Source of the DNA: Alphaproteobacteria bacterium | GTDB taxonomy: Bacteria > Pseudomonadota > Alphaproteobacteria > Rs-D84 > SZUA-605 | Length of the DNA: 64,000 nucleotides | NCBI GenBank assembly: GCA_031549385.1 | Contig: JAVBPW010000001.1 | Coordinates: forward strand, 1 to 64,000 | Direction of reading: 5' to 3' | Shown: one piece after another, positions 23,835 to 40,746 of the stretch | Layout: each line of letters begins with the position of its first letter | Numbering within the stretch: position 1 is the stretch's first letter | Program-made: the position numbers and the translations under genes | The notes under the pieces: generated by a model | What the model was told of the DNA's origin: nothing | The model's input: only the letters and a program-made list of their open reading frames with translations | The model's database searches: none

Positions 23835-24692
23835 TCAAATATTGAAATTAGTTTTTGCTTGATAAAATGCTTTTTTTTCATTTGAATTTATAATTACTTT
23901 TCTTGATAAACTTCCAAAGTTTGATTCTAAGCCTGTTGCTATTGCATCTATACAATCATCTTTATTATTTTGACGCTCTATTTTGAAAGATTCTAATTCT
24001 TCAACTAACACTGAAGTAGTCAGATTTGCTTTTATATAAAAATATGATGAATATAAAAGTGGTTGAATGTTTCTTATTATTCTCTCATTCTTGTTTTGTG
24101 TTTGGACTACCTTCTTTATAAATATAGGATAATTCATAGTTTTTGCTGTTTGAATTATCATCTCTGATAAGAATGCACCTATTCCATTTGTTTCAATTAC
24201 TAAGTTGAATAAATTGTTCTTTTTCATAAAAATTATTACCTCTTCACACTGATACTGCGCAGATGAATTTTCATCTTCTTTATTTAAACATTTCAAATCA
24301 TTTATATAACAATTACTTTGATCATCTTTGAATATTGCTACTACTATACTTTTATCACTTGTTGCTTTACCTAATGATGGATCCCATGATACACATCCGA
24401 AAGTTAAATTTCGACCATCCAAAAAATATTTTTGTATTCCATTACTTTGAAATAACTCCACATCTTTGTTGTATACATTTATTAGTGAAGTATCAAAAAA
24501 AATATTGTCCGTTTCTGGGACAATAAGCAACATTTGTGAATTAAATTTTAATGGACCTGAACGATGTGCTATTTCTTTACATTTTTTAGGTGAAAATCGT
24601 TCTGGCCAAACTGAATTTCCTTTTTCATCAAAAAGCGGTATTTTTAATATTTCAAACCCTTCTAAGAAAGGTGGAGATTTTGAAACTAACAT
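23835..24692 (-). CDS. Terminase large subunit, C-terminal RNase H-like nuclease half
   Basis: WPERF, WDPS..SD, ETNGIG, KNERI, DDCIDA; own AAGGA RBS. Confidence 0.85.
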   Translation of the reverse strand: MLVSKSPPFLEGFEILKIPLFDEKGNSVWPERFSPKKCKEIAHRSGPLKFNSQMLLIVPETDNIFFDTSLINVYNKDVELFQSNGIQKYFLDGRNLTFGCVSWDPSLGKATSDKSIVVAIFKDDQSNCYINDLKCLNKEDENSSAQYQCEEVIIFMKKNNLFNLVIETNGIGAFLSEMIIQTAKTMNYPIFIKKVVQTQNKNERIIRNIQPLLYSSYFYIKANLTTSVLVEELESFKIERQNNKDDCIDAIATGLESNFGSLSRKVIINSNEKKAFYQAKTNFNI

Positions 24693-24777
24693 TTATTTCC
24701 TTATTTTTGCGAATCCAAAATGCTTTATCAACCTTTTAAAAGGCAACTTATCTTTGTTTGAAATTTCAATGATTTAT

Positions 24778-24872
24778 AAAAAAAAGAACCCGGGGCAACT
24801 TTTTTATAGGAGAGGAGGAAGGAGAAAAAGAGAATGCCTCGGGATTTTTTATATAGACTCGGAGCCTATACG
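24778..24872 (-). ncRNA. Candidate small RNA with CU-rich anti-SD loop, between the terminase halves
   Basis: TTGACA-N17-TAAAGT at 24907..24879; hairpin 24852..24870; stem 24787..24846 enclosing UUUUUCUCCUUCCUCCUCUCCU; U-tract. Confidence 0.65.
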
Positions 24873-24928
24873 GTTCACACTTTAAACACCTGATTCTAAA
24901 TTGTCAAGCATAAAGTTTTCTTTAGTAT

Positions 24929-25561
24929 TTATTTATTTGCATATATTGTGTCATAAGTGTGTGGAGTACCTATATAAAGCTGTAAACCATTGGGATTCAA
25001 TATAAAATCTAGTTCTGATAGAAATTGGCGAAGATTTTCTCTTTTTTCCGAATTATCGCTGTTTTTTGGCACTTCGCAGTCATCACATATTATTATATCA
25101 GCCCTGTAACCCGTTATATTTCCCATTACTGATGCTGAAATTACAGATGGATCTCTTAATTCTTTAGTTCTTTCAACTGTAAAACAGTCTGAAGCCCATT
25201 GCTCTTTCTTTAATGGGACTAAATTTTGGGTTAAAGGATGCTTTTGTATAATATGTTTTATATTTCGTACCATTTTTGTTGCCAAATTTTGTTCACATGA
25301 CAAGATTAATATGACTAAATTTGGATTTTTATATAAAATCCATGCACAAAATAAACCAACTATTGATGACTTGCCTGAATTTCGAAAAGCCATCAATAAT
25401 CCCTTTTTAGTTTGTGATGTGTGTATTTTTTCCAACCAAAATGCTATTTGTTTATGATGATTTGGGGTTTTGAATTCGTTTTGTTTGTTAAATATATCTA
25501 TAAATTCATAAAAATTTACTTTGATTGCTTGATTAGATATTTCCGTAATCTTCGCTTTCAT
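24929..25561 (-). CDS. Terminase large subunit, N-terminal ATPase half
   Basis: Walker A AFRNSGKS, G-x-RAD, Walker B IIICDDCE, motif III IGTP. Confidence 0.88.
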   Translation of the reverse strand: MKAKITEISNQAIKVNFYEFIDIFNKQNEFKTPNHHKQIAFWLEKIHTSQTKKGLLMAFRNSGKSSIVGLFCAWILYKNPNLVILILSCEQNLATKMVRNIKHIIQKHPLTQNLVPLKKEQWASDCFTVERTKELRDPSVISASVMGNITGYRADIIICDDCEVPKNSDNSEKRENLRQFLSELDFILNPNGLQLYIGTPHTYDTIYANK

Positions 25562-26195
25562 TGTAAGCTTCCATGATAGTTCCTAAATCTTGAGAAAGTT
25601 CAGGAAATTTTGCTTTTAATAAATCAATCATATTTACTACCAAACCATAACAACTTCCATCGTTTGAATTATTTAACAACTTTTTCATATCTTCAAATAT
25701 TATTTTTATATCTTCATATGTTTTTTCAGCTGATAAACTTTCATCAAGGAAATCAATTTCTGAATTTACTAATCGTTTTGCTGTTTCATCCCAGACTATT
25801 GCTTTTTTTGCTTCTGCTTGAGGAAGAGTTGTTTTTATTTCACCTTTTTCTGGATCATATTTAATACATTTCTTTAGCTCCTCATTTGTCTGTCTTATTA
25901 ATTCAACTATGTAATCCATATCTAGATTTAAATCTTGAGCAGATATTACCCCATATTCTTGTAAATCTGTTTGGCGAACTATTTTTAAATTCCTTTTTAT
26001 AACTATTTTACTATTTAATGCTGGTGGAATGGAAAATATTATTTGCCCATAATCATCACTGAGCTCTGTATGGTAACCACCCTCTTGCTTTAATCCATTT
26101 ATATAAATTTCTAAATTTTCTGGTTTAAAAACTTTAAAGTTAAATGAAAATTCTGTTGTTGTACCATTTGCTTTATATGTTACTTGATTATCCAT
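25533..26195 (-). CDS. T7 gp17-like tail fibre N-terminal (adaptor) domain protein
   Basis: YKANGTTTEFSFNF...I.IKR...LNLDMDY...Q pattern; only 220 aa. Confidence 0.75.
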   Translation of the reverse strand: MDNQVTYKANGTTTEFSFNFKVFKPENLEIYINGLKQEGGYHTELSDDYGQIIFSIPPALNSKIVIKRNLKIVRQTDLQEYGVISAQDLNLDMDYIVELIRQTNEELKKCIKYDPEKGEIKTTLPQAEAKKAIVWDETAKRLVNSEIDFLDESLSAEKTYEDIKIIFEDMKKLLNNSNDGSCYGLVVNMIDLLKAKFPELSQDLGTIMEAYNESEDYGNI

Positions 26196-26685
26196 TTGTA
26201 CCTCCGCTGATTATTGTAGTTGTGCTTTTTGTTGTCTTTGGCATTGCTGAACTTACTGTTGTTACTGTACTGCCTACTCCAGAAATTAGATTTCTTCTTT
26301 TTGACATTAAATTCTTTGATAATGTGTTATCTAAATCTCTTGTCAAATTTTTTGAACTTGCTTCATAGTCTTGTTGATTACTATATTGTCTTTTAGCAGA
26401 TTCTTCTTTTATATTACTTAACACTGCTGATGAAGATTCTGAATCTATTTCAATTTGATTAGCTCCAAATCTTGCACTTTGTTCTGCTAATGTTCTTTTT
26501 AATAATGAATTTTCTGTTTCTTGTTGCTCCTTATAATTTCTGTCCAAAGCTTCTTTTTTAATCTCATAATCTTCCATTATTGTTTTCTTTTGTTTTTTAT
26601 TTTCATCTGCATTTAAGGCTTGATCTATACCTTTAAATATTAAATCAAATCCTGTTGCTGCTACCGTTGCTGCTGCTGTTGCCAT
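26188..26685 (-). CDS. Putative internal virion protein (gp14-like)
   Basis: Ala/Thr-rich N-terminus, coiled coil, EQSARFGANQI..S.SS; follows the tail nozzle gene. Confidence 0.55.
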   Translation of the reverse strand: MATAAATVAATGFDLIFKGIDQALNADENKKQKKTIMEDYEIKKEALDRNYKEQQETENSLLKRTLAEQSARFGANQIEIDSESSSAVLSNIKEESAKRQYSNQQDYEASSKNLTRDLDNTLSKNLMSKRRNLISGVGSTVTTVSSAMPKTTKSTTTIISGGTNG

Positions 26686-26697
26686 TTAAAACCTCCT

Positions 26698-28587
26698 TTA
26701 AGATAGTGCTTTAATTTTTAGTGAAATACTTTGCATACAAAATTTAAATGGTGCATCACTTTGTATTTTCCAAAGTGGAGTGTTTCCATTTGTTTTATAT
26801 CCAAATGATGACATTACATAATTACCTGTGAATTCTGTTAAACCTTTTCCATAACTACGTTGCTCCAGTTGTAATTTGTTTAATCCAAATCCTGTGTCTA
26901 TTTCTAATATTGCTGATTCTTCTAATCTTATTGATAATTCTATTAGTCTGTACTTTTTGTAACCACCGCCTGATAACTTAGTAAATGGAAATGGAACAAT
27001 CGTATGTTTATATGGATAGCCTATACAATAACTTGAAACAGGTTCGTTTAAAATCATTGTACTTTCTTCTATTTTCTTTTTTGAATATATAAAATCATCA
27101 ACTTTAATATAAATTTCTTCTCCTAAATATTCACTTAATTCATAAATACCTGTTATACTTTGTTCTTTTGAATGTTCGTATTTTGCACAATCTAAATATA
27201 AATCGTCTTCAAATTTTTCCAGATAAAAGTTTTCATTTCTTTTAGTTATTACATAGGTATTATTATCTAATGTTGTTGAATATAAAAACTTCCCATATGT
27301 TTGATAGTTACTCCAAGATAAAACTTGATTCTGAGGAGATACTGTTAATACTGCCATTTCTCCATTTGATAAAACTACATACAATTGTCTTTTAGACTTA
27401 TTATAAGTCATATCAGTTGGATCTTTTATTAAATGTGAACAAAGTTGCGATAGATTGTTTGATGTATAATTTGCTACCACTTGTCCATATACAAATTCTC
27501 TGATTTCTTTTTTGTCTTTTGATACAAAAATTGTTGCTGATTCTATTTGTAACACTGGTAAAAATCTCTCTGTTGGACTTCCTATTGCTGTTTGCTTCGA
27601 TAAAGATACTGTTGATGGTGTTATCAAATTTGTTGGAACTATCCATTCACCACTGTATGTTAAAATTTGTAAATGAAGGGCTGAAAATATTGTCTGAATT
27701 TCTTCCATACCTGAAGATAGGAGACAGAATTCTATTGCTTCATCATCTAACCCTTGTCCGCAATCAAAGTTTCCATATGTAAAAGTTTTTGAAAACCATA
27801 ACTTATTTGGCTGAGTTGGAGTTGCTCCAAAAACTAAACGACCTTGATGAAAACATGAAGTTTTTGGATACCCTCTTGTATCAGAAAAAGCAGCCTCTTT
27901 GTATGAACCTTGAGCAATATTTTTAAATTGCTTTAAGACCTGAATGTTTGCTTTTACTAAAGAAATTATACTTATAATTTTAAAAGAACCTTCGTTAAAT
28001 ATAAATTCTTTATTAATCATGTCTGATGTAAAAAAATCTACATTAGATGTTATTGTTGTTGCCCCTGTTATTCCAGCCGGTGTAAATAAAACACTCTTTT
28101 TATCATCAAATTTATAATAAGGGTAAAGACTTGTTCCGTATGTGTCTTGAGCGAACACAAAATTCTTAAACACAAAACCATAAGTTTTTTCATAGGTCAA
28201 AACTTTTGGATGGTGGTTTTGATGAGTGAAAATCATTTCTGATAAATTCTGAGATGTTTGTATTTGATCGATTTCACTTTCTTTATATGGAGTTTCTAAA
28301 ATATCAAATAACGCATCGTCTTTGTATAAATACATTAGACCTGGAAGTAATACTATTAGATAATTATCATTACTTTTTAATGTAAAACTGAATAATTTTC
28401 CCTTTTGTGGAAGTTTATGGACTAGTTTTAATCCGCCTCTTCTTTTTATTGCTCCACTCTCTGTTGTGTGAGCATTTTGTAAAACTGATACCCCGTTTGA
28501 ATGTGCTGCTAAATCAGCACGAGATGTGTAACTTTGAGCAAGTTCTCCATTTAAGAAAGAGTTTTGTGTGTGTGTAAATATTGTCAT
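26698..28587 (-). CDS. Tail tube B/nozzle (T7 gp12-like)
   Basis: QNSFLNGEL, GAIKRRGG, GYP..CFHQGRLVFG, LWFSKT; about 630 aa. Confidence 0.85.
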   Translation of the reverse strand: MTIFTHTQNSFLNGELAQSYTSRADLAAHSNGVSVLQNAHTTESGAIKRRGGLKLVHKLPQKGKLFSFTLKSNDNYLIVLLPGLMYLYKDDALFDILETPYKESEIDQIQTSQNLSEMIFTHQNHHPKVLTYEKTYGFVFKNFVFAQDTYGTSLYPYYKFDDKKSVLFTPAGITGATTITSNVDFFTSDMINKEFIFNEGSFKIISIISLVKANIQVLKQFKNIAQGSYKEAAFSDTRGYPKTSCFHQGRLVFGATPTQPNKLWFSKTFTYGNFDCGQGLDDEAIEFCLLSSGMEEIQTIFSALHLQILTYSGEWIVPTNLITPSTVSLSKQTAIGSPTERFLPVLQIESATIFVSKDKKEIREFVYGQVVANYTSNNLSQLCSHLIKDPTDMTYNKSKRQLYVVLSNGEMAVLTVSPQNQVLSWSNYQTYGKFLYSTTLDNNTYVITKRNENFYLEKFEDDLYLDCAKYEHSKEQSITGIYELSEYLGEEIYIKVDDFIYSKKKIEESTMILNEPVSSYCIGYPYKHTIVPFPFTKLSGGGYKKYRLIELSIRLEESAILEIDTGFGLNKLQLEQRSYGKGLTEFTGNYVMSSFGYKTNGNTPLWKIQSDAPFKFCMQSISLKIKALS

Positions 28588-28597
28588 TGCCAACTCC

Positions 28598-28999
28598 TTA
28601 ATATAAAAATAGTGTTTGTGGTAAGTTTGTGTAATTGCTTCGAAGATCGAGATGTATAAATGTTTTTGCTATACCAACTGAAAAGCCTAAATTAAGTGCA
28701 CACCTTATTAGCTTTGCATTTAAAATCCCGTTTTGTTTTGCTATATCAATTGCACAAGTTGCTAAATTTTGCTTTTCATCAAAAATGTGAAAACTGTTTT
28801 TTACTCCACCTATTTCTTGATTATAAGATAAACTTCTGCAACATGAATTAACAATCATAGGATGTCCATAAAGCAATCTTAATTCTTTTAATTTTTCTGC
28901 AAAACTACAAGCTAGTATTCCGTCTTTTGATTTTTTACATTGAAGTTCCTTTATGGAAAAGAGAACTTTTCCATTGTCGTCTTTTATATCTTGTAACAT
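28598..28999 (-). CDS. Peptidase M15-type endolysin
   Basis: NSCCRS..N..IGG..NSFH, AIDI, FIHLDLR (His/Asp/His Zn ligands). Confidence 0.85.
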   Translation of the reverse strand: MLQDIKDDNGKVLFSIKELQCKKSKDGILACSFAEKLKELRLLYGHPMIVNSCCRSLSYNQEIGGVKNSFHIFDEKQNLATCAIDIAKQNGILNAKLIRCALNLGFSVGIAKTFIHLDLRSNYTNLPQTLFLY

Positions 29000-29000
29000 A

Positions 29001-29570
29001 TTAACCTCGGCAGTCTATTAATGAGAATTTAGTTATTTTTTCTGGGGTCTTTTGTTGAGCGTCTATTAGTTTTGCTAATCTTTCTTGGCTTATACAAACT
29101 TGGTTTAAGTAACTTGATTTTGCATGGTCTTCTGTTAATGGAAGACAAAATTCATAAGATAAAAAATCCACTAATAAATTTATGAAAAATGGAGGCATTT
29201 GACTTTCGTCAATATCCTGAATCACTTTTATTGTTACTATGTCTGAGTTTGCATAAAGTCGGTCTTTCATTATTTTATATGAAATGTCTGAAAAATTATC
29301 CCCTGCCCCACATGAAATTATCCTTAAAATATTTTTAGGTAATAAATAGGTATATGAATAACCTTGAATTGCAGGTTCATCTAATGATGCTGGTTGAATT
29401 AAATTGCAAGCAAATGTCCATGGGTATGATGAAAGCAATTTTTGTTTTACTATTTTATAAAAAGATTTTGAAATTTTAGCTTCTGCTGTGTTTTGATTAA
29501 AATTTGATATTGTATTTGCACCTATTTTAAGCAATGCCATAGAGCAAATATCTATGTTTGTGTAATTCAT
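29001..29570 (-). CDS. Tail tube A/adaptor (T7 gp11-like)
   Basis: DICSMALLKIG, YPWTFA, Y.LP..LR; position after the capsid gene. Confidence 0.8.
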   Translation of the reverse strand: MNYTNIDICSMALLKIGANTISNFNQNTAEAKISKSFYKIVKQKLLSSYPWTFACNLIQPASLDEPAIQGYSYTYLLPKNILRIISCGAGDNFSDISYKIMKDRLYANSDIVTIKVIQDIDESQMPPFFINLLVDFLSYEFCLPLTEDHAKSSYLNQVCISQERLAKLIDAQQKTPEKITKFSLIDCRG

Positions 29571-29593
29571 TAGAAATACTCCTTTTAAAGTTT

Positions 29594-29617
29594 AAAGGGG
29601 GCAAAAAGCCCCCTTTT
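29594..29617 (-). terminator. Intrinsic terminator after the capsid/decoration genes
   Basis: AAAGGGGGC-N5-GCCCCCTTTT. Confidence 0.75.
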
Positions 29618-29618
29618 A

Positions 29619-29849
29619 TTACATTGCTACTAATGTTACTGCTGTGTCAGTTACTGCTGAAACTGCTGCAATTACACTTTGATCACTTGCATTGATGAAA
29701 ATAAAATCATTAGCATTAATTACTTTTGACATGTCTGCAAAATATGTAGATGCCATTGTTACTGCTTTTGTATCTGTTGTTTTATAGTGCCACAATGTGA
29801 AGCCATTTGCATAGGCTAGTACGCTTAAATTGTTTGTTTTAAAAGCCAT
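29619..29849 (-). CDS. Putative head decoration/cement protein
   Basis: 76 aa, LSVLAYANGFTLWHY...YF; directly after capsid; AAGGAG RBS. Confidence 0.65.
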   Translation of the reverse strand: MAFKTNNLSVLAYANGFTLWHYKTTDTKAVTMASTYFADMSKVINANDFIFINASDQSVIAAVSAVTDTAVTLVAM

Positions 29850-29860
29850 AGTATTCTCCT

Positions 29861-30694
29861 TTATGCTACTATTGCTGCGTCATCTTTGCAGCTGATTTTT
29901 ACTATTCCACTTTCGTCAATTACACATGAACCTTGGCTCATTGAGTTTGATATGAAATGTGATTGGCGATCGCCTTGCCATGAAATGTCAGATTTTACTT
30001 CTGAACCTACAGCATGACCTATTGCTGTTTTATGATAAATAAAGCATTGGCGATTTCCTGAAATTAATGGAAGATTGTTGTGTAAAATCCAAATTACTCC
30101 CATCCATTTTCTTGCTTCACTTCCATTTATTAATGCATAGTTTTCACCACAATATTCTGATGAAGTGAATTCTTTAATGCTTAATAGTTCTGACCATTGA
30201 TGAACACCTACTACACCAAATCTTTGACCGTCGTCTGGACATGAAAGTTCATTCAATTTTTCAATTGCTTTCATAATCTTTTCTTTTGTTAGACCTTTTG
30301 TGTCCGCTGCTACTTCATTTGTTGCTTTTGAAAGTGCACTAATGATTAATTCATCTGTTTTTCTTCCTAATGCATATGCTCCAGCTGAAGCTATTACTTT
30401 TCTTTCGTCTGTGTTTGTTTTTAATTCATCCATAGCATCGCACCAATCGCCTGCATAAAAATCTTGCAAAACACATTCTATTGGTGTGTGTTGAATGTTC
30501 ATTGTTGGAACTAACCCATGACGAGATTTTGTTGATGCTGTGCCTTTGCCTACTCTTTGGAATGTAGTTGAAGAACCTTTTACATCATTTTTTACTCGCA
30601 CAGTGTTGCGTAGTTTTGTTCCGTATTGTTGATATTGCAAATGTACATCTGCTTCAAATTGTTTGATAAATGCTTGATCTATTGTTAAAGACAT
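29861..30694 (-). CDS. Major capsid protein (podovirus-type)
   Basis: FIKQFEADVH..YQQ.G.KLRNTV, AGAYALGRKTDELII; strong RBS; follows the scaffold gene. Confidence 0.85.
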   Translation of the reverse strand: MSLTIDQAFIKQFEADVHLQYQQYGTKLRNTVRVKNDVKGSSTTFQRVGKGTASTKSRHGLVPTMNIQHTPIECVLQDFYAGDWCDAMDELKTNTDERKVIASAGAYALGRKTDELIISALSKATNEVAADTKGLTKEKIMKAIEKLNELSCPDDGQRFGVVGVHQWSELLSIKEFTSSEYCGENYALINGSEARKWMGVIWILHNNLPLISGNRQCFIYHKTAIGHAVGSEVKSDISWQGDRQSHFISNSMSQGSCVIDESGIVKISCKDDAAIVA

Positions 30695-30783
30695 TCTTAT
30701 TCTCCTTTAATTAATTATTTAATTGTCGACTTTATACCGGAGGGTGAGTCTTTATTTATTGTTATCCTTGCGGGCAATAGTTT

Positions 30784-31413
30784 TTATTTGTATAGTTTTT
30801 CAAATCCTTCTTTTACCTTTTGGCAAAATTCCGGATCATTTTCTTTCCAATATTTTGGATTATTCATTAGCTTCTTTAGTGAATCTAATGTTAATTGTTT
30901 TGATGGGGATGATGTTTCGTCTAAGATTTTAGGCTCTGATGAATTCAACATCTTATATAGTAATAATACTCCGTCATATGATGAAGCAAGAACTTCATAT
31001 AAATCTTGAGATAGATTATTGTCTGCATATGTTTGAATTTGAGATGCTACTTTTTCCCAATTTTCTTGTCCACCAAAATAATTTTTTAAATTTTGTAATT
31101 GTGTTTGTTGTTTTAAATCAAATTCTGTTTCTTGTATCTTTGTATTTAAATTCTGATTCAAAATATCATGAACACATTTTGCTTGTGATTTTGTAAATTT
31201 ATTTTCAAATAGTTTCTTACCTATAGCTTCATCTTGAAAATCTAGTTCATATTCACTTGGGTCTTGAGGTAAATCTAAATTTATTTCTTCTTGATTTGAT
31301 GTGCTTAGCTTTTTTTCTAAATCTTTATATGATTTCAATAAATTTTTTGCGTTTAGTTGACCTGTTTCTTTATCCAAAAATTTTTCTGGTATCTTTATTT
31401 CTTGATCTGTCAT
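30784..31413 (-). CDS. Capsid scaffolding protein (T7 gp9-like)
   Basis: IPEKF..L.KSY.DLEKKL, FGG..W, M.NPKYW...DPEF..KV. Confidence 0.8.
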   Translation of the reverse strand: MTDQEIKIPEKFLDKETGQLNAKNLLKSYKDLEKKLSTSNQEEINLDLPQDPSEYELDFQDEAIGKKLFENKFTKSQAKCVHDILNQNLNTKIQETEFDLKQQTQLQNLKNYFGGQENWEKVASQIQTYADNNLSQDLYEVLASSYDGVLLLYKMLNSSEPKILDETSSPSKQLTLDSLKKLMNNPKYWKENDPEFCQKVKEGFEKLYK

Positions 31414-31421
31414 AATTGCTC

Positions 31422-31607
31422 CTATTTTAAATTTTCATCAATAGATTTTCTTAAGAAAACTATCGAAAATAATGGGAAGATTGTGGAAAATAAATTAGCT
31501 AAATCTAAATCTCCTAATAAATATCCTGAGACTGCTGAAATAATTCCTGTGATTGATACAAGGTATGTTTTTTTACCTTTTAACATTCCACCGTTTAATA
31601 AATTCAT
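31422..31607 (-). CDS. Holin-like small membrane protein
   Basis: GKKTY, two hydrophobic segments, basic tail; next to a cell wall hydrolase. Confidence 0.6.
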   Translation of the reverse strand: MNLLNGGMLKGKKTYLVSITGIISAVSGYLLGDLDLANLFSTIFPLFSIVFLRKSIDENLK

Positions 31608-31617
31608 TTTAATTCCT

Positions 31618-32079
31618 TTATATTTTGTAAAATAAATATTGTTTTATTTGAGTTTGGTAACCTTTTCCTTCTGCGAGTTCTGGAAATTCGTCTTCGTGAT
31701 GGTAAAAAGTAGATCCAAAGGTTGTATCCTTTAAAATTCCTCGTAGCACTTTACCGGCTAGCCTTGAACATATTGCAAATTCAGGATTGGTTATTGTGGT
31801 ACCTGGAAGTTTATTTTTTAATTTTTGATAAAAGTTTTCATCTAAACAAATTGAGTCTATGGTTTTATTAGCATGATTTGAATTTTTAATTCTGTTTGCT
31901 ATTGTGCATGCTATTGCTTCTTTTAAAATTAATGAAAGACCATAAGATTCATGATATATGGTAAAGGCTAGTATAAATTGTTGGTGTTCTTTCTTTTGAC
32001 AATCTTGAAGTAATATATCTTTATATTCTTTGGTTGCATTTGATTTTGTGAAATCACAAAATTTTAAACTATTTAACAT
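31618..32079 (-). CDS. SleB/Hydrolase_2-family cell wall hydrolase
   Basis: LAFTIYHES (catalytic Glu), IANR, D.T.GSTFYH, YLFY. Confidence 0.75.
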   Translation of the reverse strand: MLNSLKFCDFTKSNATKEYKDILLQDCQKKEHQQFILAFTIYHESYGLSLILKEAIACTIANRIKNSNHANKTIDSICLDENFYQKLKNKLPGTTITNPEFAICSRLAGKVLRGILKDTTFGSTFYHHEDEFPELAEGKGYQTQIKQYLFYKI

Positions 32080-32359
32080 TATACTTCCTTTTTTCTAATT
32101 TTTCTTCTATACGCAATAAATGATTTGTTAGACGAGTTTCAAGATCTCTAATGTAAGAAACCGAACAATAGGACATTGCTACTTCAAGCTTGTATGAAGA
32201 TAAATCTTCGGCAAGCTTTATAACATTTGCCTTTGCTTCGTCTTTTAATTGATTTAAATCGTTTTGAGTTTGCCTTGAATGGGATCTTAGTAAAAAAAAT
32301 AAGCCTGTTAGTGCAGGCAATTCTATTACTTGTATCCACCAAAAATAGCTAAATTCCAT
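32069..32359 (-). CDS. First gene of the virion cluster, membrane-anchored coiled-coil protein
   Basis: N-terminal hydrophobic WWIQVIELPALTGLFF, YKLEVA..Y.S, HLLRIEEKL. Confidence 0.7.
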   Translation of the reverse strand: MEFSYFWWIQVIELPALTGLFFLLRSHSRQTQNDLNQLKDEAKANVIKLAEDLSSYKLEVAMSYCSVSYIRDLETRLTNHLLRIEEKLEKRKYNVK

Positions 32360-32381
32360 TAGTACCCCCTGAGTTTAGATG

Positions 32382-32551
32382 AAAAAAGCCCAAAACCTTT
32401 CGATTTTGGGCAAAAAAAGAGGAGACCGAAGTCTCCATAAAAGTGAGAACCGAAGTTCTCATAAAGTGAAGTCCGAAGACTTCATAATTTCTTAGGAAAT
32501 AGTTTTCCCTTGAAGACTTATCAGTATATAGAACTTTTTCATAAAAGTCAA
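32382..32551 (-). promoter_or_regulatory. Virion-cluster leader: sigma70 promoter, three cUUCGg hairpins, intrinsic terminator
   Basis: TTGACT-N17-TATACT (32551..32523); hairpins at 32468..32483, 32445..32460 and 32421..32436; terminator 32388..32411 plus U6. Confidence 0.8.
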
Positions 32552-32773
32552 CTACAAATTTGAAATTTTATACATTGTTTTTTAATTTACAACAAAATAC
32601 TCTCTAAATACAATCTCTTAAATTTGTATAATTTTTTTCAAAAAGTGGACTAATTTTTCATTTTTAGACTAAATATTATAATATTTTGTAATTTTGCGAT
32701 TCGTAAAGTTTTCATTATTTACTTGCATTTTTGGTTTTGGACTGTACTATTTAACCCATAAGAGGAGAGAGAT

Positions 32774-33409
32774 ATGTTGAAAAAAATTTTGTTTGCATTA
32801 GTTTGCGCAGTTATAGGAACATCTTATGCCCAACTTAGCGAGGCAGATAATAAAGCAGCAGTTGATAAGATGAAAGCTTTAGTTACTGATGTAGAAGATA
32901 AAATTTTAAAACGAGATATCCCTCAAGATGAGAAAAATAAGCACTTTGATGAAATTCTTGTTTCCCAAATGGATTTGGAAAAGGTTTCATCATTTATTGT
33001 TGGAAAACCATGGAAAGAAGCAAATTCTGCTGATAAGGACAAATTTTTAAAATCTTTCAGACATTTTCAAATTTTAAGATTTAAAGAAACTTTTAATTCT
33101 TACTCTGATGAAGTTATTGAAGTTGGGGGTACTTTACCTTCTTCTTCTAAAAATCAATTGTTTGTTGAAATGCAAATTAAGTCAAAAAGTAAACAAGGTG
33201 AGCCTATTGATATTAAATGGAAAATGGCAAAAGAAAATAATGGAGATTTCAAAATTACTGATGTTGTGATTGAAGGAGTTTCTATGGCTGCTTCTTTAAA
33301 GCAAGAATATTCTGCTATTTTAAATAACGCTACAGGCAATAAGCTTGAATATCTTGCAAAAAAAATAGATGCTAAAGCAAAAGAATTTGAAAAGCCTAAA
33401 AAGAAATAA
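32774..33409 (+). CDS. mlaC: MlaC/Ttg2D-family periplasmic binding protein
   Basis: Signal peptide, VGKPW, KITDVVIEGVSM....KQEY. Confidence 0.8.
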   Translation: MLKKILFALVCAVIGTSYAQLSEADNKAAVDKMKALVTDVEDKILKRDIPQDEKNKHFDEILVSQMDLEKVSSFIVGKPWKEANSADKDKFLKSFRHFQILRFKETFNSYSDEVIEVGGTLPSSSKNQLFVEMQIKSKSKQGEPIDIKWKMAKENNGDFKITDVVIEGVSMAASLKQEYSAILNNATGNKLEYLAKKIDAKAKEFEKPKKK

Positions 33410-33419
33410 GGCGGTTCCT

Positions 33420-35294
33420 ATGAATAACAATACTTATACTAATATTGCTACTGCTCTTCGTATGCTATCTGTTGATATGGTTGTTAATGCTGGAAGTGGA
33501 CATCAAGGTATGCCGCTTGGTATGGCTGATATTGCAACTGTGTTATTTTGTAATCATTTAAATTTTAATACTCAAAATCCTCATTGGATTAATAGAGATA
33601 GATTTATTCTTTCTAATGGTCATGGTGTTGCTCTTCAATATTCACTACTTTATATGGCTGGGTATGAAGATATTAAACTTGAAGATATTAAAAATTTTAG
33701 ACAAGTTGGCTCAAAAGCTGCTGGACATCCTGAATATCGTTCTTTTGATGGAATTGAGACTACTACTGGTCCTTTAGGACAAGGGTTTGCTAATGCAGTT
33801 GGAATTGCTTTGGGACAAAAAATATTAAATAAAAAATGTGGCAAAAATGCTTTAGATTTTAAGGTATATTGTTTCTGTGGAGATGGCGATCTTATGGAAG
33901 GTATCTCATATGAAGCACAAAGTTTTGCTGGAAAAAACCAACTCAATAACCTGATAGCTGTTTTTGACAATAATCAAATTACTATTGATGGTAATGTTTC
34001 CCTTTCTCGAAAAGAAAATATTAAAGAAAGATTTTTATCAACTGATTGGAATGTTATTGAAATAGATGGTCATAATTTTAAGCAAATTGATGACGCTTTT
34101 AAAAAGGCTAAAAAGGAAACTAAGCGCCCTACTTTAATTATTGCTAATACTATTATTGGTAAGTTTAGTGAATTTGCTGGGGAAGCTAAAGTTCATGGAA
34201 ATCCTATTAATGCAGAGGGCAGAGAAAAAATTGCCAAAAAATTAAATTGGAAATATAAACCTTTTGAAATACCTGATGATATCATTTGTGAATTCCAAAA
34301 ACTATCATCACGTGGACAAGAAAAATTTGATAACTTTGATAAAAAATCTTTTGATGTTTTCGAAAAATTTTATGGCGATAGTTACAACGAAAAACAAATA
34401 AATTCTAAATTAAAAAAATATATTTCTGATATTGTTAAAAACAAAAAAGATGTTTCTACACGAAAAGCTTTCGGTGAAGTTTTAGGATTGGTTAAAGATG
34501 ATATTTTTGACTATGTTAATGGGTCTGCTGATTTGACTGAATCTAATAATTTTATAGTTGATGATGAATATATTAGATATGGTATCAGAGAACATTTTAT
34601 GGCTGCTTGTTCGAGTGGACTTTCATTAATGGGTTTTAAAAGCTTCTGTGGTACTTTCCTTGCTTTTTCTGATTATATGAGACCTGCTATTCGATTATCT
34701 TGTCTTATGGGGTTAGATGTTAATTACGTGTTTACTCATGACTCAATTGGGGTTGGAGAAGATGGACCTACTCATCAACCTGTTGAACAATTAAGTGGAT
34801 TACGATTAGTGCCTAATATTACTGTGTTTAGACCTTGTGATGCAATTGAAGCAACACAATGTTTGAAGTATTCGTTAGAAATAGATACACCAAAAGTATT
34901 TGCATTATCTCGTCAAAATTTGCCTGTTATTTTAGATAGCAAAACTGATAAAGTAAGTTATGGAGCATATGCTATTGTTGATTGTAAAAAACCATCATTA
35001 ATTATTATGGCAAGTGGCTCAGAAGTTCAAATAGCTTTAGAGTTGGCTAAAGATAAAAAAAATGTTCGAGTAATTTCATTTGTTTCTATGGAACTTTTTG
35101 AAAAACAAAATGAAAAATATAAATCAGAATTATTGCCAAAAGGCGTTAAAAAGGTTGCTATTGAAGCTGGAGTAACTGGTCTTTGGTATAAATATGCTAA
35201 TCAAGTTTTTGGTATTGATACATTTGGAAAATCTGGAAAATATAAAGACATTTTCGAATGGGCAAAATTGACTTATAAACAAATCAAAATTTAG
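33420..35294 (+). CDS. tkt: Transketolase
   Basis: SGHQGMPLG, GHPE, GPLGQG, GDGDLMEG, THDSIGVGEDGPTHQP; start reassigned to MNNNTY. Confidence 0.96.
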   Translation: MNNNTYTNIATALRMLSVDMVVNAGSGHQGMPLGMADIATVLFCNHLNFNTQNPHWINRDRFILSNGHGVALQYSLLYMAGYEDIKLEDIKNFRQVGSKAAGHPEYRSFDGIETTTGPLGQGFANAVGIALGQKILNKKCGKNALDFKVYCFCGDGDLMEGISYEAQSFAGKNQLNNLIAVFDNNQITIDGNVSLSRKENIKERFLSTDWNVIEIDGHNFKQIDDAFKKAKKETKRPTLIIANTIIGKFSEFAGEAKVHGNPINAEGREKIAKKLNWKYKPFEIPDDIICEFQKLSSRGQEKFDNFDKKSFDVFEKFYGDSYNEKQINSKLKKYISDIVKNKKDVSTRKAFGEVLGLVKDDIFDYVNGSADLTESNNFIVDDEYIRYGIREHFMAACSSGLSLMGFKSFCGTFLAFSDYMRPAIRLSCLMGLDVNYVFTHDSIGVGEDGPTHQPVEQLSGLRLVPNITVFRPCDAIEATQCLKYSLEIDTPKVFALSRQNLPVILDSKTDKVSYGAYAIVDCKKPSLIIMASGSEVQIALELAKDKKNVRVISFVSMELFEKQNEKYKSELLPKGVKKVAIEAGVTGLWYKYANQVFGIDTFGKSGKYKDIFEWAKLTYKQIKI

Positions 35295-35593
35295 TTATCA
35301 TCTACTTTTCGTCCTTTTGCTTTAAAAATACATGCTGAAGATTTACTATCCCAATTTCCACCACGACTTGTGCAATCTTTTTTATATGCATCATTTTTAA
35401 TCTCTTCTGCTTTTTTCTTTTCTTTATCTGCTGCTTTTTGCTCTTTCTTTTCAGCTTTTGCTAATGCTTTTTCTTCTTTTTTTATTTTATTTAATTCAGA
35501 ATTAATTTCTTTTTCTTGAGCTTTTTTGATTTGTTTTTCAATTTTTTGAGCAGTTTTTTCTTCTTTCTTAGTTATTACTGGGAGATATACCAA
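35291..35593 (-). CDS. Probable frameshifted C-terminal continuation of the Cys-rich secreted protein
   Basis: Repeats KAEKKEQKAADKE and KIEK.IKKAQ.KE from the upstream ORF; no RBS. Confidence 0.55.
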   Translation of the reverse strand: MVYLPVITKKEEKTAQKIEKQIKKAQEKEINSELNKIKKEEKALAKAEKKEQKAADKEKKKAEEIKNDAYKKDCTSRGGNWDSKSSACIFKAKGRKVDDN

Positions 35594-37022
35594 AATCCAT
35601 ATTATCTAAATCTTGTTGGATACTTTTATTTAAATCTTCTTGATCTTTTTTAGACTGTTTTAATGCGGCATCTAATTCTTTATCTTGAGCTTTTTTGATG
35701 GATTTTTCTATCTTTTCACCTTGCTTTATTTCTTTATCAGCTGCCTTTTGTTCTTTTTTCTCCGCCTTTTCTTCTGCTTTTGCCTCTGCCTTTGCTTCTT
35801 TTTCTGCTGAACTTTTAAATAGTGTTCCTGCTTGTAGTTTTCCACCAAGAATTCCACCTGCTATAGCTCCTACTCCTGCTGCTACTCCAGTTACTATATT
35901 CTTGTTTCCTTCTACTTTAGATTTTACTCCAGAAATTGGGTCATAACCAAAAGTTGCTGCGTCACATTTTAATACTTCACCATTGTTAAATGTTAATTTA
36001 ATTTCACCAGGATCGTTTGCTCCTACTGCTGGATATTTTAATGATACGTCAAATGTACATGAACCAACACCATTGAATGTTCCGTTAATATTTTCACATG
36101 CTTTTTGCCATGCGTCAAATTCGTTTTGCATAGATTTTTGATCTTTTTCTATTTTTGAAATTACTTTGTCATATCCATATGATCCTATTGATTGACATCT
36201 GTCTATTACTTCCAAACATGTTGCTCTGTATGTTGCACGTGAAATGCTGTCAAAACAAAGTTCATATTGGTATTTTTCACCACGACATGCTTTAGCCATA
36301 CATGATTCTATTTCAGAATCACATTTACTTATTGCTGCTAGTTTTGCTGAATCTAAATTACCCTGTCTTGAATTATCAAGTTCCATTATGAAATTTGCCC
36401 ATACGTCTTGTGAAACTGATACTCCACAATCTATTAAAACACCTTCACAAGCTTGTTTCTTTAATGTTACTTGGTCAAGATTTAATGTTGCACAATTTTC
36501 ATAATTTGCTCCACACACTGAACCTGATTTCATACATCCATTAAATTTTTTTGAACAATCTGAAATATTTGCTGAAAGCATTCTTTCAAATTCTGCATCT
36601 GCTTTATTTTGTTCTGCTATAATTTCTGCTTTGAATGCATTTAATTCTTTTTCATAAGATTTTGCTATATTTTCAAATGTGTAAACTTTATCTTTGATTT
36701 CTATCATTGTGAAATCTGTAACTGTTGTTGTGGCAGTAGTAGTTGTTGTTGCAGCTGTTGTTCTTGGAGTAGTCCCTGCTTTTGTTGTAGTTGTTACTCT
36801 GTTTGCACCTGTTCGACTTGATGCAGCACGACCACTTGTTCCACGAGATGCAGCAGCCTTACTTCTTAATTGAGTACTTGAACTTGAGCTTTTACTTGAT
36901 GAAGATGCAGCACTTTTAGAAGCTGAACTTCTTCCTGTGTTTGCTCTTTGAGAATATGAGTAAGAAGATGCAATAACTAGCATCGCAAACAAAATTAAGT
37001 ATCTTTTATTAAATTTGTGCAC
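35568..37022 (-). CDS. Secreted Cys-rich protein with Ser/Thr/Arg-rich N-terminus and glycine-zipper helix
   Basis: GTG start after AGGAG; signal peptide; many Cys; GVAAGVGAIAGGILG. Confidence 0.75.
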   Translation of the reverse strand: MHKFNKRYLILFAMLVIASSYSYSQRANTGRSSASKSAASSSSKSSSSSTQLRSKAAASRGTSGRAASSRTGANRVTTTTKAGTTPRTTAATTTTTATTTVTDFTMIEIKDKVYTFENIAKSYEKELNAFKAEIIAEQNKADAEFERMLSANISDCSKKFNGCMKSGSVCGANYENCATLNLDQVTLKKQACEGVLIDCGVSVSQDVWANFIMELDNSRQGNLDSAKLAAISKCDSEIESCMAKACRGEKYQYELCFDSISRATYRATCLEVIDRCQSIGSYGYDKVISKIEKDQKSMQNEFDAWQKACENINGTFNGVGSCTFDVSLKYPAVGANDPGEIKLTFNNGEVLKCDAATFGYDPISGVKSKVEGNKNIVTGVAAGVGAIAGGILGGKLQAGTLFKSSAEKEAKAEAKAEEKAEKKEQKAADKEIKQGEKIEKSIKKAQDKELDAALKQSKKDQEDLNKSIQQDLDNMDFGISPSNN

Positions 37023-37151
37023 TCTTTTCTCCTGAAATCTTGTCATATTGTATCACAAAATTCGTTGTATTAAAAGCATTTTTTAATTTTTTTATTGCTT
37101 CTTTCTGGTTTTATGCTATAAGGTAGGAAATTTAAATATATGAGGTTTTTT

Positions 37152-37808
37152 ATGGATTTGATTATTCGTGGACAAGTGGGAAGGATTGAGGCTGCATATC
37201 AGAAGAATCCACAACCAGCTGCCCCTGTTGTTTTAGTTATGCCTGATGCTCCTAATGTTAGTGGAGCTAATATGAACGATAAGTTAACTTATACACTGTT
37301 TCATTCATTCGTTAATGAAGGGTTTCATACTTTAAGAATGAACTTTAGATCTGTTGGAAGATCAGAAGGCGAATTCACTGGTGGCGAAGGCGAACTTGCT
37401 GATGCTGGGTGTATTTTAGACTGGATACAAAAGAATCATGAATATTCTGAAAATATCTGGGTAGCTGGAGTTGGCTTTGGTGCTTATATAGGAATGCAAC
37501 TTTTAATGAGAAGACCGGAAATTACTACTTTTATTACAGTTAATCCACCATTGGCTGATTTTGACTTTTCATTCTTATCACCATGCCCTTGTAACGGTTT
37601 GATTTTAAACTCTGCTGGAGATACTAACGAAAACCATAATTTACGTAAAGCATTGGCTGATAAAATTAATGAACAAAAAGATGTTAAAGTTAAATACGTT
37701 TCTTTAAAAGATACTACTCCGGCTTTTGAAAATAGATTGCCATTACTATTTAAAACTTTGAGAGAATATATCGCTACACAAAAAGATAAAGAAAATAAGT
37801 TGATATAA
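37152..37808 (+). CDS. Alpha/beta hydrolase-fold protein, apparently catalytically degenerate
   Basis: [32 protein letters not shown]; nucleophile elbow reads GVGFG. Confidence 0.85.
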
Positions 37809-38797
37809 TGAATAATGATGAACAAAGAATTTTTGATGCTAAGAAAAAAGATGAAGACATTTTATCTTTAAGACCAAAGTTTTTAAAAGAACTAATTGGT
37901 CAAATGGAAGTTAAAGATAATTTAGATGTTTTTATTTCTGCAGCGCTTAAGGAAAGCAGAGCTTTGGATCATGTTCTTTTTCATGGACCTCCAGGACTTG
38001 GAAAAACTACACTCGCTCATATTGTTGCTAGAGAATTAGGAGTTGGATTTAGAGCAACTTCCGCACCTATGATTTCTAAGGCTGGTGACTTGGCTGCTAT
38101 TCTTACAAATTTACAACAAAATGATGTTTTGTTTATTGATGAAATTCATAGATTAAACCCAGCTATTGAAGAAGTTTTATATTCTGCGATGGAAGATTTC
38201 CAATTGGATTTAATTATTGGTGAGGGTCCTGCTGCAAGATCTGTTAGAATTGATTTGCAACCTTTTACTCTTGTTGGAGCTACTACAAAAACTGGGCTTT
38301 TAACTTCACCACTTCGTGAAAGATTTGGAATTCCTATGCGAATGAAATTTTATTCTCATGATGAACTTGCTCAAATTGTTTCTCGTTCTGCCAATCTTTT
38401 AGGAATTGATATTAATGATGATGCAGCACTTAAAATTGCACAAAGTTCTCGTGGAACTCCTCGTATTTCTAATCGTCTTTTAAAGAGAATTAAAGATTTT
38501 GCTGTTTACAAAAATTTAGAAAAAATATCTTTTGATATGACCTTAGATGCTCTTAAAAGATTAGGTGTTGATGAAATCGGACTTGATGAAATGGATCAAA
38601 GATATTTGAATTATATCATTAATAATTATGGCGGTGGGCCTGTTGGAATTGAAAATATTGCAGCTGGACTTTCTGAAGAATTATCTACTATTGAAGATGT
38701 GATAGAACCATTTTTATTACAACAAGGATTTATTCAAAGAACACCTCGTGGAAGAGTTGTAACTGAAATAACTTATACTCATTTGAAAAAACACTAA
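37808..38797 (+). CDS. ruvB: Holliday junction helicase RuvB
   Basis: [30 protein letters not shown]. Confidence 0.98.
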
Positions 38798-38830
38798 TTT
38801 AATAAACTTAATTTTTAAAACCTATTATAT

Positions 38831-39190
38831 ATGAATACAAACAAACAGTTCTGGAAAATTGTGAATAATTCAGATTCACAAAAAAATCAAATTTGCGAAC
38901 TTATCAGATTGATAAGTAAACTTGACGGAAGATTAACTGAACTTGAAGAAGTTATACTTTGGATACTTCTGTCCGAAAAAACTTTAGGACAAACAGCGCT
39001 TGTTCGTTATTCTATTAAGTTCAATTTTGACTTTAGTACTATTACCGTACCTATTAAAGTAATAGGAGATTTTTTGAAAGGGGAAAAGGAAGTAAATTTT
39101 ATTCCTGAAAATCCGGAGCAAGAAAAAGAACTTGAAAAATCTTTAAACCTCTTGAGTGATTTAAAAAATCTTTATCAAGAAGTTGCTTAA
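38831..39190 (+). CDS. Hypothetical protein (SD-less leader)
   Basis: 119-aa ORF followed by a terminator hairpin. Confidence 0.6.
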   Translation: MNTNKQFWKIVNNSDSQKNQICELIRLISKLDGRLTELEEVILWILLSEKTLGQTALVRYSIKFNFDFSTITVPIKVIGDFLKGEKEVNFIPENPEQEKELEKSLNLLSDLKNLYQEVA

Positions 39191-39224
39191 AAAATTAGAG
39201 CCTGTTTTTTACAGGCTCGTTTTT

Positions 39225-40658
39225 TTATAAAGTTGATACAGTTACAACGTCAGGAACGCCACCTGCAAGAACTGATTTATTTTCGTCACTTCTTTTTCCC
39301 AATGTAATTACTATATTGTCACCGGATTTTAAGCCTAAATAATTTGCAGCATATTTTTTTGCTAAACTTTCAAAATCTGTATAATTTGGATCTTCTTTTT
39401 CTTCCAAAATAACTGATCTTACACCCCAAAACAATTCACTTTGTCTTGCAAATTCTTCATTTCTTGTTAAACATAACATTGGAGTTTGTATACGATAAGA
39501 TGACATTATTTTTGGTAATGTTCCTGTTATTGAAAAACATACTATTGCTTTTGCATTTATTTTTTTTGCTAGCTTTGCAACCATTAAACCAATTGCTTCT
39601 TTTAATGTTACTACATCTTTTGAACGAGCTGATGCATTTAAAAATTTATTCCAATTTGATGAATGTTCTACATCTTCAATAATGTCTTCCATCATATTTA
39701 CTGTTTCTATTGGATATTTTCCTGTTGCTGTTTCCGCTGATGTCATTACTGCATCTGCTCCTAAATAAACCGCTGTTGCTACGTCTGATGTTTCAGCACG
39801 TGTTGGTGATGGATTTTCTATCATAGATTCCATCATTTGTGTTGCAACTATTACTGGCTTTCCATACTTTTGACACATAGAAATTATATCACGTTGAATT
39901 GATGGAACTTTTGATTGACCTATTTCAACTGCAAGATCACCTCGAGCAACCATTATACCATCTGATTCTTTTACTATATTTTCTAAATCTTCTACGGCTG
40001 ACGGTTTTTCTATCTTAGAAATTATTTTTAATTTTCCATCTGTTTTACTTCTTACTTCAATTACATCTTTTGCAGTTTGAACAAATGAAATTGCTAAATA
40101 ATCTACATTTTGAGTTAGAACAAATTTTAAATCATTTTCATCTTTTTCTGTTAGTATTGGGATATCCAAAATAGTGTTTGGAATATTGAAACCTTTTTTA
40201 TCTGATAATTTATCACCATACAAAACTTTTGTTTCTGCAAAATCCTTTCCAGCTTTTAAAACTTCAAGCGCTACATAACCATCATTTAATAAAATTTTTT
40301 GACCTTTTGTTAGTACTTTAAATACTTCTGGATTTGGAAGACGAACTCCTTGTTCATCTCCTAATTTATCTTCTAGATAAATTTTAAAATCCTGACCTGG
40401 TTTTAATTTTATTTCACCATCTTTAAAACAACCTATTCTGTGTTTTGGACCTTGTAAATCAGCCAATATTGCAACTGGACGATTTAATTCTTTTGATATT
40501 CTTTTAATATCTTTTATTTTTGCACCTTGTTCAGCATGATCACCATGACTGAAGTTTACTCGACATACATCCACACCAGCTTCAAGGATTTCTTTTATTT
40601 TCTTCTCTGATGATGGACCAATTGTTGAGACTATTTTTGTAAACGTATTTTTTGACAT
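39225..40658 (-). CDS. pyk: Pyruvate kinase
   Basis: TKIVSTIGPSS, RVNFSHG, DLQGPK, KIEK, MVARGDL, ATQMMESM; start reassigned to MSKN. Confidence 0.97.
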   Translation of the reverse strand: MSKNTFTKIVSTIGPSSEKKIKEILEAGVDVCRVNFSHGDHAEQGAKIKDIKRISKELNRPVAILADLQGPKHRIGCFKDGEIKLKPGQDFKIYLEDKLGDEQGVRLPNPEVFKVLTKGQKILLNDGYVALEVLKAGKDFAETKVLYGDKLSDKKGFNIPNTILDIPILTEKDENDLKFVLTQNVDYLAISFVQTAKDVIEVRSKTDGKLKIISKIEKPSAVEDLENIVKESDGIMVARGDLAVEIGQSKVPSIQRDIISMCQKYGKPVIVATQMMESMIENPSPTRAETSDVATAVYLGADAVMTSAETATGKYPIETVNMMEDIIEDVEHSSNWNKFLNASARSKDVVTLKEAIGLMVAKLAKKINAKAIVCFSITGTLPKIMSSYRIQTPMLCLTRNEEFARQSELFWGVRSVILEEKEDPNYTDFESLAKKYAANYLGLKSGDNIVITLGKRSDENKSVLAGGVPDVVTVSTL

Positions 40659-40746
40659 AAATTTTCCTTGCTTTTTTTCTCTATTTATCTTACATTTTTG
40701 AAAGTCCATTATAATACACATTTAATTTAAAATAAAGGAGAAAGTT

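Follow-up and report, generated by a model that had tools for sequence, protein, structure and literature searches.

A conserved candidate small RNA gene with an anti-Shine-Dalgarno-like loop in the split terminase locus of a small-genome alphaproteobacterium

The 236-bp gap (24693-24928) between the N-half ORF and the C-half ORF of a split terminase, both on the minus strand, contains what sequence comparison indicates to be a real, conserved and self-contained small RNA (sRNA) gene, which runs from promoter to terminator on the same strand. This gene, designated A1, belongs to a previously uncatalogued RNA family. A gene-like anatomy, conservation in other genomes, covariation of the terminator stem, invariance of the loop among relatives and an anti-Shine-Dalgarno (anti-SD) content were all observed. 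Our favoured reading, to which we give about an even chance, is that A1 is a genuine and independently transcribed A-type sRNA of ~96 nt that would lower translation by pairing broadly with Shine-Dalgarno (SD) sequences. The window, which is the whole stretch of 64,000 nucleotides that was analysed, is part of a 0.93-Mb alphaproteobacterial chromosome with ~30% G+C. An initial annotation of this DNA had described a TTGACA-N17-TAAAGT promoter, a first hairpin, a stem enclosing a CU-rich loop, and a U-tract at 24778-24907 on the minus strand, and all of these elements are present as described:

24778-24907, minus strand: sRNA unit, from the -35 box to the last U, with two hairpins between
24907-24902, minus strand: -35 box TTGACA of the sRNA promoter, with a 17-nt spacer to the -10 box
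24884-24879, minus strand: -10 box TAAAGT, weaker than the TATAAT of genome G001
24871-24851, minus strand: 5′ hairpin of 9 pairs with a 3-nt loop
24843-24835, minus strand: 5′ arm of the terminator stem, CCCGAGGCA
24834-24798, minus strand: CU-rich loop of 37 nt, UUCUCUUUUUCUCCUUCCUCCUCUCCUAUAAAAAAGU, enclosed by the terminator stem
24797-24789, minus strand: 3′ arm of the terminator stem, TGCCCCGGG
24788-24778, minus strand: U-tract UUCUUUUUUUU, the 3′ end of the sRNA, kept in family members

The promoter agrees with the consensus at 10 of 12 positions, and the 5′ start of the RNA is predicted from the spacing alone to lie at ~24872 ± 3. The two arms of the terminator stem form eight pairs, seven of which are G-C, and one A.C mismatch. 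The 37-nt loop includes the anti-SD core CCUCC as well as CUCCUU and UCUCCU, and a U-run in it can pair with an A-run, which leaves ~20 nt exposed. The predicted fold of A1 (-21.1 kcal/mol) is more stable than that of 200 shuffled sequences (-13.9 ± 2.6 kcal/mol; z = -2.76), only one of which was as stable. A G+C-rich stem lies directly 5′ of the U-tract, as is expected of an intrinsic terminator. However, the hairpin has a total length of 55 nt, and its loop exceeds the short-loop criterion for such terminators (3-8 nt); a loop of 37 nt is atypical of an efficient intrinsic terminator. Because of this loop, the hairpin was not listed by a scan for consensus terminators. The promoter motif by itself is no more than chance, as the region contains 78 promoter-like sites compared with 84.8 ± 8.5 in shuffled sequences. 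A1 is lifted above chance because the whole unit is conserved in other genomes.

The gene lies in a phage-like cluster and is flanked by the following ORFs:

24929-25561, minus strand: N-half of the terminase large subunit, 210 aa, with Walker A/B and coupling motifs (PF03237)
23835-24692, minus strand: C-half of the terminase, 285 aa, a T7-type RNaseH-like nuclease (PF22530, E = 1.7e-08)

The N-half aligns to residues 46-211 of T7 gp19 (E = 1.5e-25), and its PF03237 match places it with the N-terminal ATPases of large terminases of the T4/T7 type. The -35 box lies 22 nt downstream of its stop codon and the hairpin and U-tract ~50 nt downstream of it, and the C-half has its own SD and ATG 85 nt downstream of the U-tract. 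FtsZ, an AmiC-type amidase and tRNA-Phe are encoded between the terminase and a T7-type portal gene. Homologs of the N-half occur as stand-alone ORFs in all 19 relatives' loci, where the alignment stops at query residue 207-210; the split is therefore old. An intact adjacent ortholog of the nuclease half is retained in only three of these 19 loci. Directly after the N-half stop codon, ten of the 19 have a unit of the same kind, in which a promoter close to consensus is followed by one or two small hairpins and by a terminator hairpin with a long CU-rich loop, and the remaining nine (seven from family f5, one from family f6, and genome G040) have other genes in that place. The next ORF overlaps the end of the N-half in the f6 locus L013, and a convergent gene follows the N-half in f5.

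The family comprises two types, A and B, and members were detected only in part of a single order of Alphaproteobacteria with small genomes. When 45 related small genomes were searched with R1, a covariance model of the terminal hairpin, 21 proved to carry the family: the genome analysed here (G000), 1/1 of family f1, 4/4 of f2, 14/18 of f3, 1/3 of f6, 0/1 of f4 and 0/17 of f5. Among 150 other alphaproteobacterial families, R1 matched none. It recovered members outside its training set (G004, G002, G010 and G032). Within G000 it scored the B copy (42544-42618) at 44.7 bits, A1 at 40.1 bits and a paralog on contig C1 at 28.5 bits, and all other matches had E > 0.01. The two further copies in G000 are as follows:

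42532-42639, plus strand: B-type paralog, with a UUCG hairpin, the stem GGGUUUGUUGG/CCAACAAACC, the loop CUCCCUCCUUAUUUUCUCUCUCCUCUUAAA and a separate terminator hairpin
contig C1, 57291-57388 (locus L047), minus strand: A2, the third copy, with the stem GGCGGCA/TGCCGCC and a loop very like that of A1

The loop of type B is CAUUCCCUCCUUAUUUUCUCUCUCCUC. Allowing at most two mismatches, this 21-mer is present in 18 of the 201 genomes of the order, always as a single copy (G000, f1 1/1, f2 3/4, f3 13/19, f4 0/1, f5 0/172 and f6 0/3), and a reversed-pattern control gave 0 everywhere. The B stems vary between species through paired changes while the loop is unchanged. Type A is less widespread than its sister type B. 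In eight g4 loci it was recovered as an additional gene, located some hundreds of bases away from B. Its loop is UUCCUUUUCUCUCCUUUCCUCCUUCUCUCCUC, and an exact core of 21 nt is common to the eight g4 loci and to the terminase-gap element of G001. A1 agrees with this core in 18 of the 21 positions and is therefore the A-type ortholog. In family f1 the terminase gap is occupied by the A copy, and the distance to the B copy is 18 kb in G000 and 7 kb in G001. The families that carry the common A core have DnaA proteins of only 30-39% identity. The near-invariance of the loop across such distant families therefore points to strong selection on an exposed anti-SD-like sequence.

Several other identities were considered and rejected. 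No Rfam 15 family matched the element, either with a cut-off of E ≤ 10 for the window and E ≤ 5 for the loci of ten relatives or with the gathering score, so an intron or a known RNA was rejected. A repeat or MITE was rejected, since the nucleotide match of A1 in its own genome is single-copy and the next best match is 31 nt long (E = 0.004). In a collection of viral contigs, the B motif occurred in none and the A motif in one. A phage origin was rejected, since this lone match is 100% identical to the bacterial locus of G001 and is not independent. The 18-mer matches outside Alphaproteobacteria lacked the hairpin in those looked at. Neither conserved loop sequence (A or B) was found in the searchable literature. 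Locus L197, an 11.5-kb entry among the viral contigs, is 100% identical to the chromosomal terminase/sRNA locus of G001 over the 3.5 kb compared, and its sequence is evidently that of a domesticated terminase cluster being called as a virus.

Family members have sigma-70-type promoters of their own: when a strict pattern was applied, 18 of 32 were preceded by one, compared with 0.032 expected per 175-nt window. The G001 ortholog, which is also located between the terminase halves, has a perfect TTGACA-N17-TATAAT. The eight g4 A genes keep TTGACT-N17-TAAGAA(T) and fail the strict pattern only because their conserved -10 box is TAAGAA(T); TTGACA or TTGACT thus occupies the equivalent place in G001 and in all eight. 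The self-contained minus-strand sRNA gene proposed in the initial annotation is borne out by this conserved unit with its promoter-bearing A-type orthologs. Covariation in relatives, which had been named as a check, was also found. In an alignment of 34 family hits that was fitted to the covariance model and includes two or three non-members, 89.7% of the terminator-stem cells are paired (63.5% in shuffles), and 10 of 10 pairs have changed on both sides. The covariation score of 0.740 was reached by none of 500 shuffles (0.256), and sliding the partner by 1-3 columns lowered it to 0.08-0.24. A 5′ hairpin of different sequence lies at the same place in the relatives, where RNAalifold could not align or call it (too variable). 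A coding function was rejected for want of a conserved ORF: G000 and G001 lack one altogether, and the reading frames that cross the loop are not the same in the different g4 genomes.

It is nevertheless conceivable, if unlikely, that A1 is a cis element only, namely the terminator and 3′ UTR of the N-half operon, in which case the promoter-like hexamers arose by chance, A1 is a decaying duplicate and the B copy does the job. The chance density of promoter-like sites, the weak -10 box and the drifted loop are consistent with this explanation. Moreover, the other two copies in G000 directly follow ORFs without a recognisable promoter, the B copy being directly 3′ of a 222-aa ORF and A2, which has a poor U-tract, being directly 3′ of another. 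However, the ortholog of G001 has a perfect promoter at the same terminase position, the stem and U-tract of A1 are intact, and a simple terminator requires neither a 37-nt loop nor a conserved CU tract. The same weaker -10 box and drifted loop, 18/21, are the reason why we consider that A1 may be less active than the B copy.

The content of the loops suggests what the RNAs might do. The 3′ end of the 16S rRNA of this genome is GGAUCACCUCCUUUC, with the anti-SD core CCUCC. All three loops (A1, A2 and B) contain CUCCUU/UCUCCU, and CCUCC is present in A1 and B. AAGGAG and AGGAGA, the complements of which occur in all three loops, are the most enriched hexamers upstream of genes, an enrichment that is inflated because the choice of start codons favoured SD-bearing starts. 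An SD core of at least 4 nt precedes 516 of the 862 crudely called genes (~60%); the gene calls of both G000 and G020 are crude ORF calls with the same bias in start choice. Loop duplexes are stronger at initiation regions than in coding interiors (-9.5 vs -6.5 kcal/mol). The sequence GAGGAGAGAGAAAAUG is the exact complement of the 3′ half of the B loop, and it heads unrelated genes order-wide. GAGGAGAGAGAAAA was rejected as a target tag, as it is simply a recurrent ribosome-binding site (RBS) across the order. Neither Hfq nor ProQ was found in the genome analysed here, which is 97% complete, whereas control genomes gave matches.

Some occurrences of these RBSs were recorded in passing. In the f5 loci L142 and L143, a gene that starts with MTH(E/D)DVW(R/H)AIERFATEHGMSCSGLAKCSGLDPTTFNKSKR, and that is phage-repressor-like by eye, has the RBS GAGGAGAGAGAAAAUG or CAGGAGAGAGAAAAUG. 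An MTH(E/D)DVW(R/H) gene lies ~7.5 kb from the terminase N-half in G019, and the same exact 14-mer RBS lies ~7.7-7.8 kb from the terminase N-halves of G017 and G021.

From these features we infer that masking of SD sequences is the most likely mechanism. The working part of A1 would be the long single-stranded CU-rich loop, kept open by the terminator stem. The loop would act as a copy of the 16S anti-SD core that also complements the lineage's commonest SD and spacer sequence. By pairing with purine-rich ribosome-binding regions, it would lower the translation of the mRNAs concerned, and this pairing would proceed without Hfq or ProQ and have a broad rather than a gene-specific reach. In addition, the hairpin and U-tract would stop transcription from the upstream terminase N-half, the transcripts of which probably also end at the U-tract (24778-24788), and the nuclease half would then need its own expression. 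Insulation of this half by the terminator, as suggested in the initial annotation, is plausible.

The searches for targets weigh against this reading. At initiation regions, composition-matched shuffled loops bind at -9.70 ± 0.53 kcal/mol and A1 at -9.51 kcal/mol; the affinity of A1 for initiation regions is purely compositional. Among initiation regions it matches perfectly over at most 11 nt (mean of shuffled loops, 11.3), and its best perfect match genome-wide is 15 nt, to its own paralog (shuffles average 13.3). The best duplex of A1, -30.3 kcal/mol at a G-rich RBS (C2:93073), was reached by none of 30 shuffled loops, and its perfect-match length is at chance. The second complete genome used for comparison, G020 of family f3, shares 465 ortholog pairs with G000. 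The overlap of the top 10% of targets was 12/46 for A and 10/46 for B, compared with 10.4 ± 1.5 and 9.9 ± 2.5 for shuffled loops, and no target set is conserved between the two genomes. Complementarity that is conserved and above chance, the general criterion for a trans-acting sRNA, was not found for A1. If composition alone mattered, however, the near-invariance of the loop would be unexplained.

The RBS at C2:93073 belongs to a three-gene operon (C2:92430-95114, locus L080) that scores high with all three loops. The operon encodes proteins of 209, 343 and 328 aa behind the unusually G-rich RBSs GGGGAGGGG, AGAAGGGGGAAG and GGGAGGGGGAAG. These three proteins had no Pfam or NCBIfam match, and the same two databases gave nothing useful for the proteins flanking the paralogs and the top A1 target.

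The B loop has longer matches in its own genome. It matches three initiation regions perfectly, that of dnaA over 19 nt (C5:75244), that of a class-II fructose-bisphosphate aldolase gene over 16 nt (C5:12908) and that of mlaC over 14 nt (window 32774), and none of 100 shuffled loops reached 16 nt against initiation regions. The B loop of G020 gave nothing comparable (13 nt). For A, dnaA ranks 2nd and 12th of 465 in G000 and G020. Nevertheless, dnaA was rejected as a conserved target, since it ranks equally high with 12 of 60 shuffled A loops and 26 of 60 shuffled B loops. The initiation region of dnaA is purine-rich order-wide, including families without the RNA, and its duplexes reach -16 to -26 kcal/mol in f5/f6 compared with -15.6 to -19.8 kcal/mol in g4. 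The best B candidate common to G000 and G020 is ftsZ. None of 60 shuffles equals it at ftsZ itself, but 18 of 60 do so at one ortholog or another, and the candidate is not significant after selection.

Rho, ribosomal protein S1 and KH domains prefer pyrimidine-rich RNA. The loop might be a docking site for a conserved protein that prefers unstructured C/U-rich RNA, such as Rho, S1 or a KH protein, with the RNA acting as a decoy that titrates or recruits the protein and pairs with no mRNA. We regard this explanation, too, as improbable. It would account for the conservation of a loop sequence, beyond its composition, across families with DnaA only 30-39% identical, and for the emergence of no specific or conserved mRNA target. 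However, a protein-binding site needs neither an exact anti-SD core nor complements of the commonest SD hexamers, and the B copy's matches of 19, 16 and 14 nt, set against 0/100 shuffled loops at 16 nt, also speak against it.

A bolder version of SD masking, which we put forward with considerable doubt, sees in the A and B RNAs the remnants of a phage device for host takeover, domesticated along with the genes of the T7-like particle; when induced, they would mask RBSs genome-wide. Two chaperone-independent "artificial anti-SD tails" would then cover the consensus ribosome-binding sequence of the lineage. Cell-cycle genes would be masked in particular, namely dnaA, with its 19-nt B match in G000, and ftsZ, the best B candidate shared by two families, in each of which it neighbours the RNA genes. 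The cell would stop replicating and dividing for as long as particles were made. Under such a scenario, it may also have been the insertion of the RNA gene that broke the terminase into an ATPase half and a nuclease half with separate expression.

The initial annotation had proposed a narrower role, in which the portal gene and an H1-like gene would be the targets. The complementary stretches exist as described: the portal RBS has AAGGAGAAAA directly before the ATG, complementary to the A1 loop over 10 nt, and the RBS of the H1-like gene pairs with the loop over 14 nt with one bulge. In addition, three families show physical linkage between the RNA gene and the terminase N-half. It is nevertheless very unlikely that the sRNA is devoted to the phage-like cluster and silences these two genes through their RBSs. 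Among the 862 initiation regions, the portal ranks only 100th and the H1-like gene 139th in duplex strength with A1. For 16 genes the loop has perfect complementarity over 10-11 nt, and 11 nt is typical of shuffled loops. Moreover, family f5 keeps the terminase N-half without the RNA (0/17 by the covariance model and 0/172 by the B 21-mer). As specific targets, then, the two genes do no better than shuffled controls, which was the refuting outcome set in advance. The more general proposal of an anti-SD sRNA that silences SD-led mRNAs fares better in one part, since the loop does carry the anti-SD core CCUCC, whereas the targets named for it are unremarkable.

The least credible explanation is a DNA-level element, with recombination or integration at the terminase break taking place in a polypurine/polypyrimidine tract or at the RNA gene's 3′ end: short modules in the g4 loci L010, L014 and L028 each end in a copy of the B RNA 3′ end, a layout that resembles the 3′-end copies left at tRNA genes, but the conserved promoters, the stem covariation and the U-tracts are left unexplained, and A1 is single-copy without flanking repeats in its own genome. 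The three modules lie just after the B RNA gene, are ~115 nt long each and end in UCUCUCUCCUCGACUUGGGGAU followed by a U-run.

Returning to the reading of A1 as a broadly pairing sRNA, we compared it with known systems. To our knowledge, Helicobacter pylori lacks Hfq. According to the published account, the RepG RNA of this species is a short sRNA of two stem-loops, the seed of which is the C/U-rich loop of its own terminator, and it pairs with a G tract in an mRNA leader near the RBS as its one defined G-repeat target (PMC8295292). A C/U-rich single-stranded seed in the loop of an intrinsic terminator is likewise present in A1. However, the two RNAs have no sequence relationship (no Rfam match for A1), and in that account RepG has one defined target whereas our search found no specific target for A1. 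At 37 nt, the A1 loop is also much longer than that of RepG, and it mimics the anti-SD tail. Of the systems compared, RepG is the closest in design and the cuckoo family the closest in taxon.

According to its published description, the cuckoo family includes CcsR1-4/RSs0680, NfeR1/SmelC397 and alpha-r14, which are found in Rhizobiales/Rhodobacterales. In these RNAs, 2-4 hairpins of 24-50 nt lie side by side, the loops measure 9-27 nt, and every hairpin loop carries CCUCCUCCC (PMC4615179). They resemble the present family in being alphaproteobacterial, in having an anti-SD-like pyrimidine motif in hairpin loops, in varying their stems by compensation while the loop motif alone is conserved, and in occurring as several paralogs per genome. 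The differences are that CCUCCUCCC is absent here (the loop sequence is ...CCUUCCUCCUCUCCU... in A1 and ...CUCCCUCCUUAUUUUCUCUCUCCUC... in B), that the CU loop is found on one hairpin of two, the terminator, as a 55-nt hairpin with a 37-nt loop, that no Hfq was found in the genome analysed here, and that the taxonomic range differs. No Rfam model matches A1, although Rfam may not cover the cuckoo RNAs. Judged by its sequence against the published motif, A1 is not a member of the cuckoo family.

AbcR1 and AbcR2 are alphaproteobacterial sRNAs whose anti-SD motifs repress translation; they depend on Hfq and have defined ABC-transporter targets. Neither this dependence nor these targets apply to A1, which also has no Rfam match. 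A1 is not a member of the AbcR or CcsR/cuckoo families, which the initial annotation had cited for their CU-rich loops directed against SD sequences: it has no Rfam match and lacks the CCUCCUCCC motif. RNAIII is mentioned in the description of the cuckoo family as a Firmicutes sRNA with UCCC/C-rich loops (PMC4615179). RsaE/RoxS are further Firmicutes sRNAs with such loops. Exposed C-rich loops of this kind have been proposed to bind the SD regions of many mRNAs without a strict need for Hfq, as is proposed here. However, the Firmicutes sRNAs have short UCCC motifs in several loops whereas A1 has one long CU tract, and they belong to unrelated lineages with experimentally defined regulons.

We know of no riboregulation described in reduced, uncultured, symbiont-like Alphaproteobacteria without Hfq and ProQ. 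The present family would add to such organisms a pair of paralogous sRNA genes, each with a nearly invariant loop of 21-25 nt, kept across families in which DnaA is only about one-third identical. It would represent an independent case of the design in which a C/U-rich loop is directed against the ribosome-binding site. Its unusual features are the great length of the loop, the placement of this loop in the terminator, and the position of the gene between the two parts of a split, domesticated T7-type terminase. The family also offers a testable handle on translation control in organisms that are not yet cultivable, as it reduces the question to a 96-nt RNA, one loop and few candidate targets.

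Metatranscriptome contigs from two runs of the same study were compared with the region 24000-43500. Among the contigs listed, eight from one run are exact (163-318 nt), and none of those listed lies on 24778-24907 or 42532-42639, which is uninformative on expression either way. A 119-aa ORF at 38831-39190 of the window (plus strand), which was below the initial ORF size cut-off and for which the Rfam scan gave no match of note, has its own terminator, and the deepest exact metatranscriptome contig listed for this region (depth 20) covers 38880-39195.
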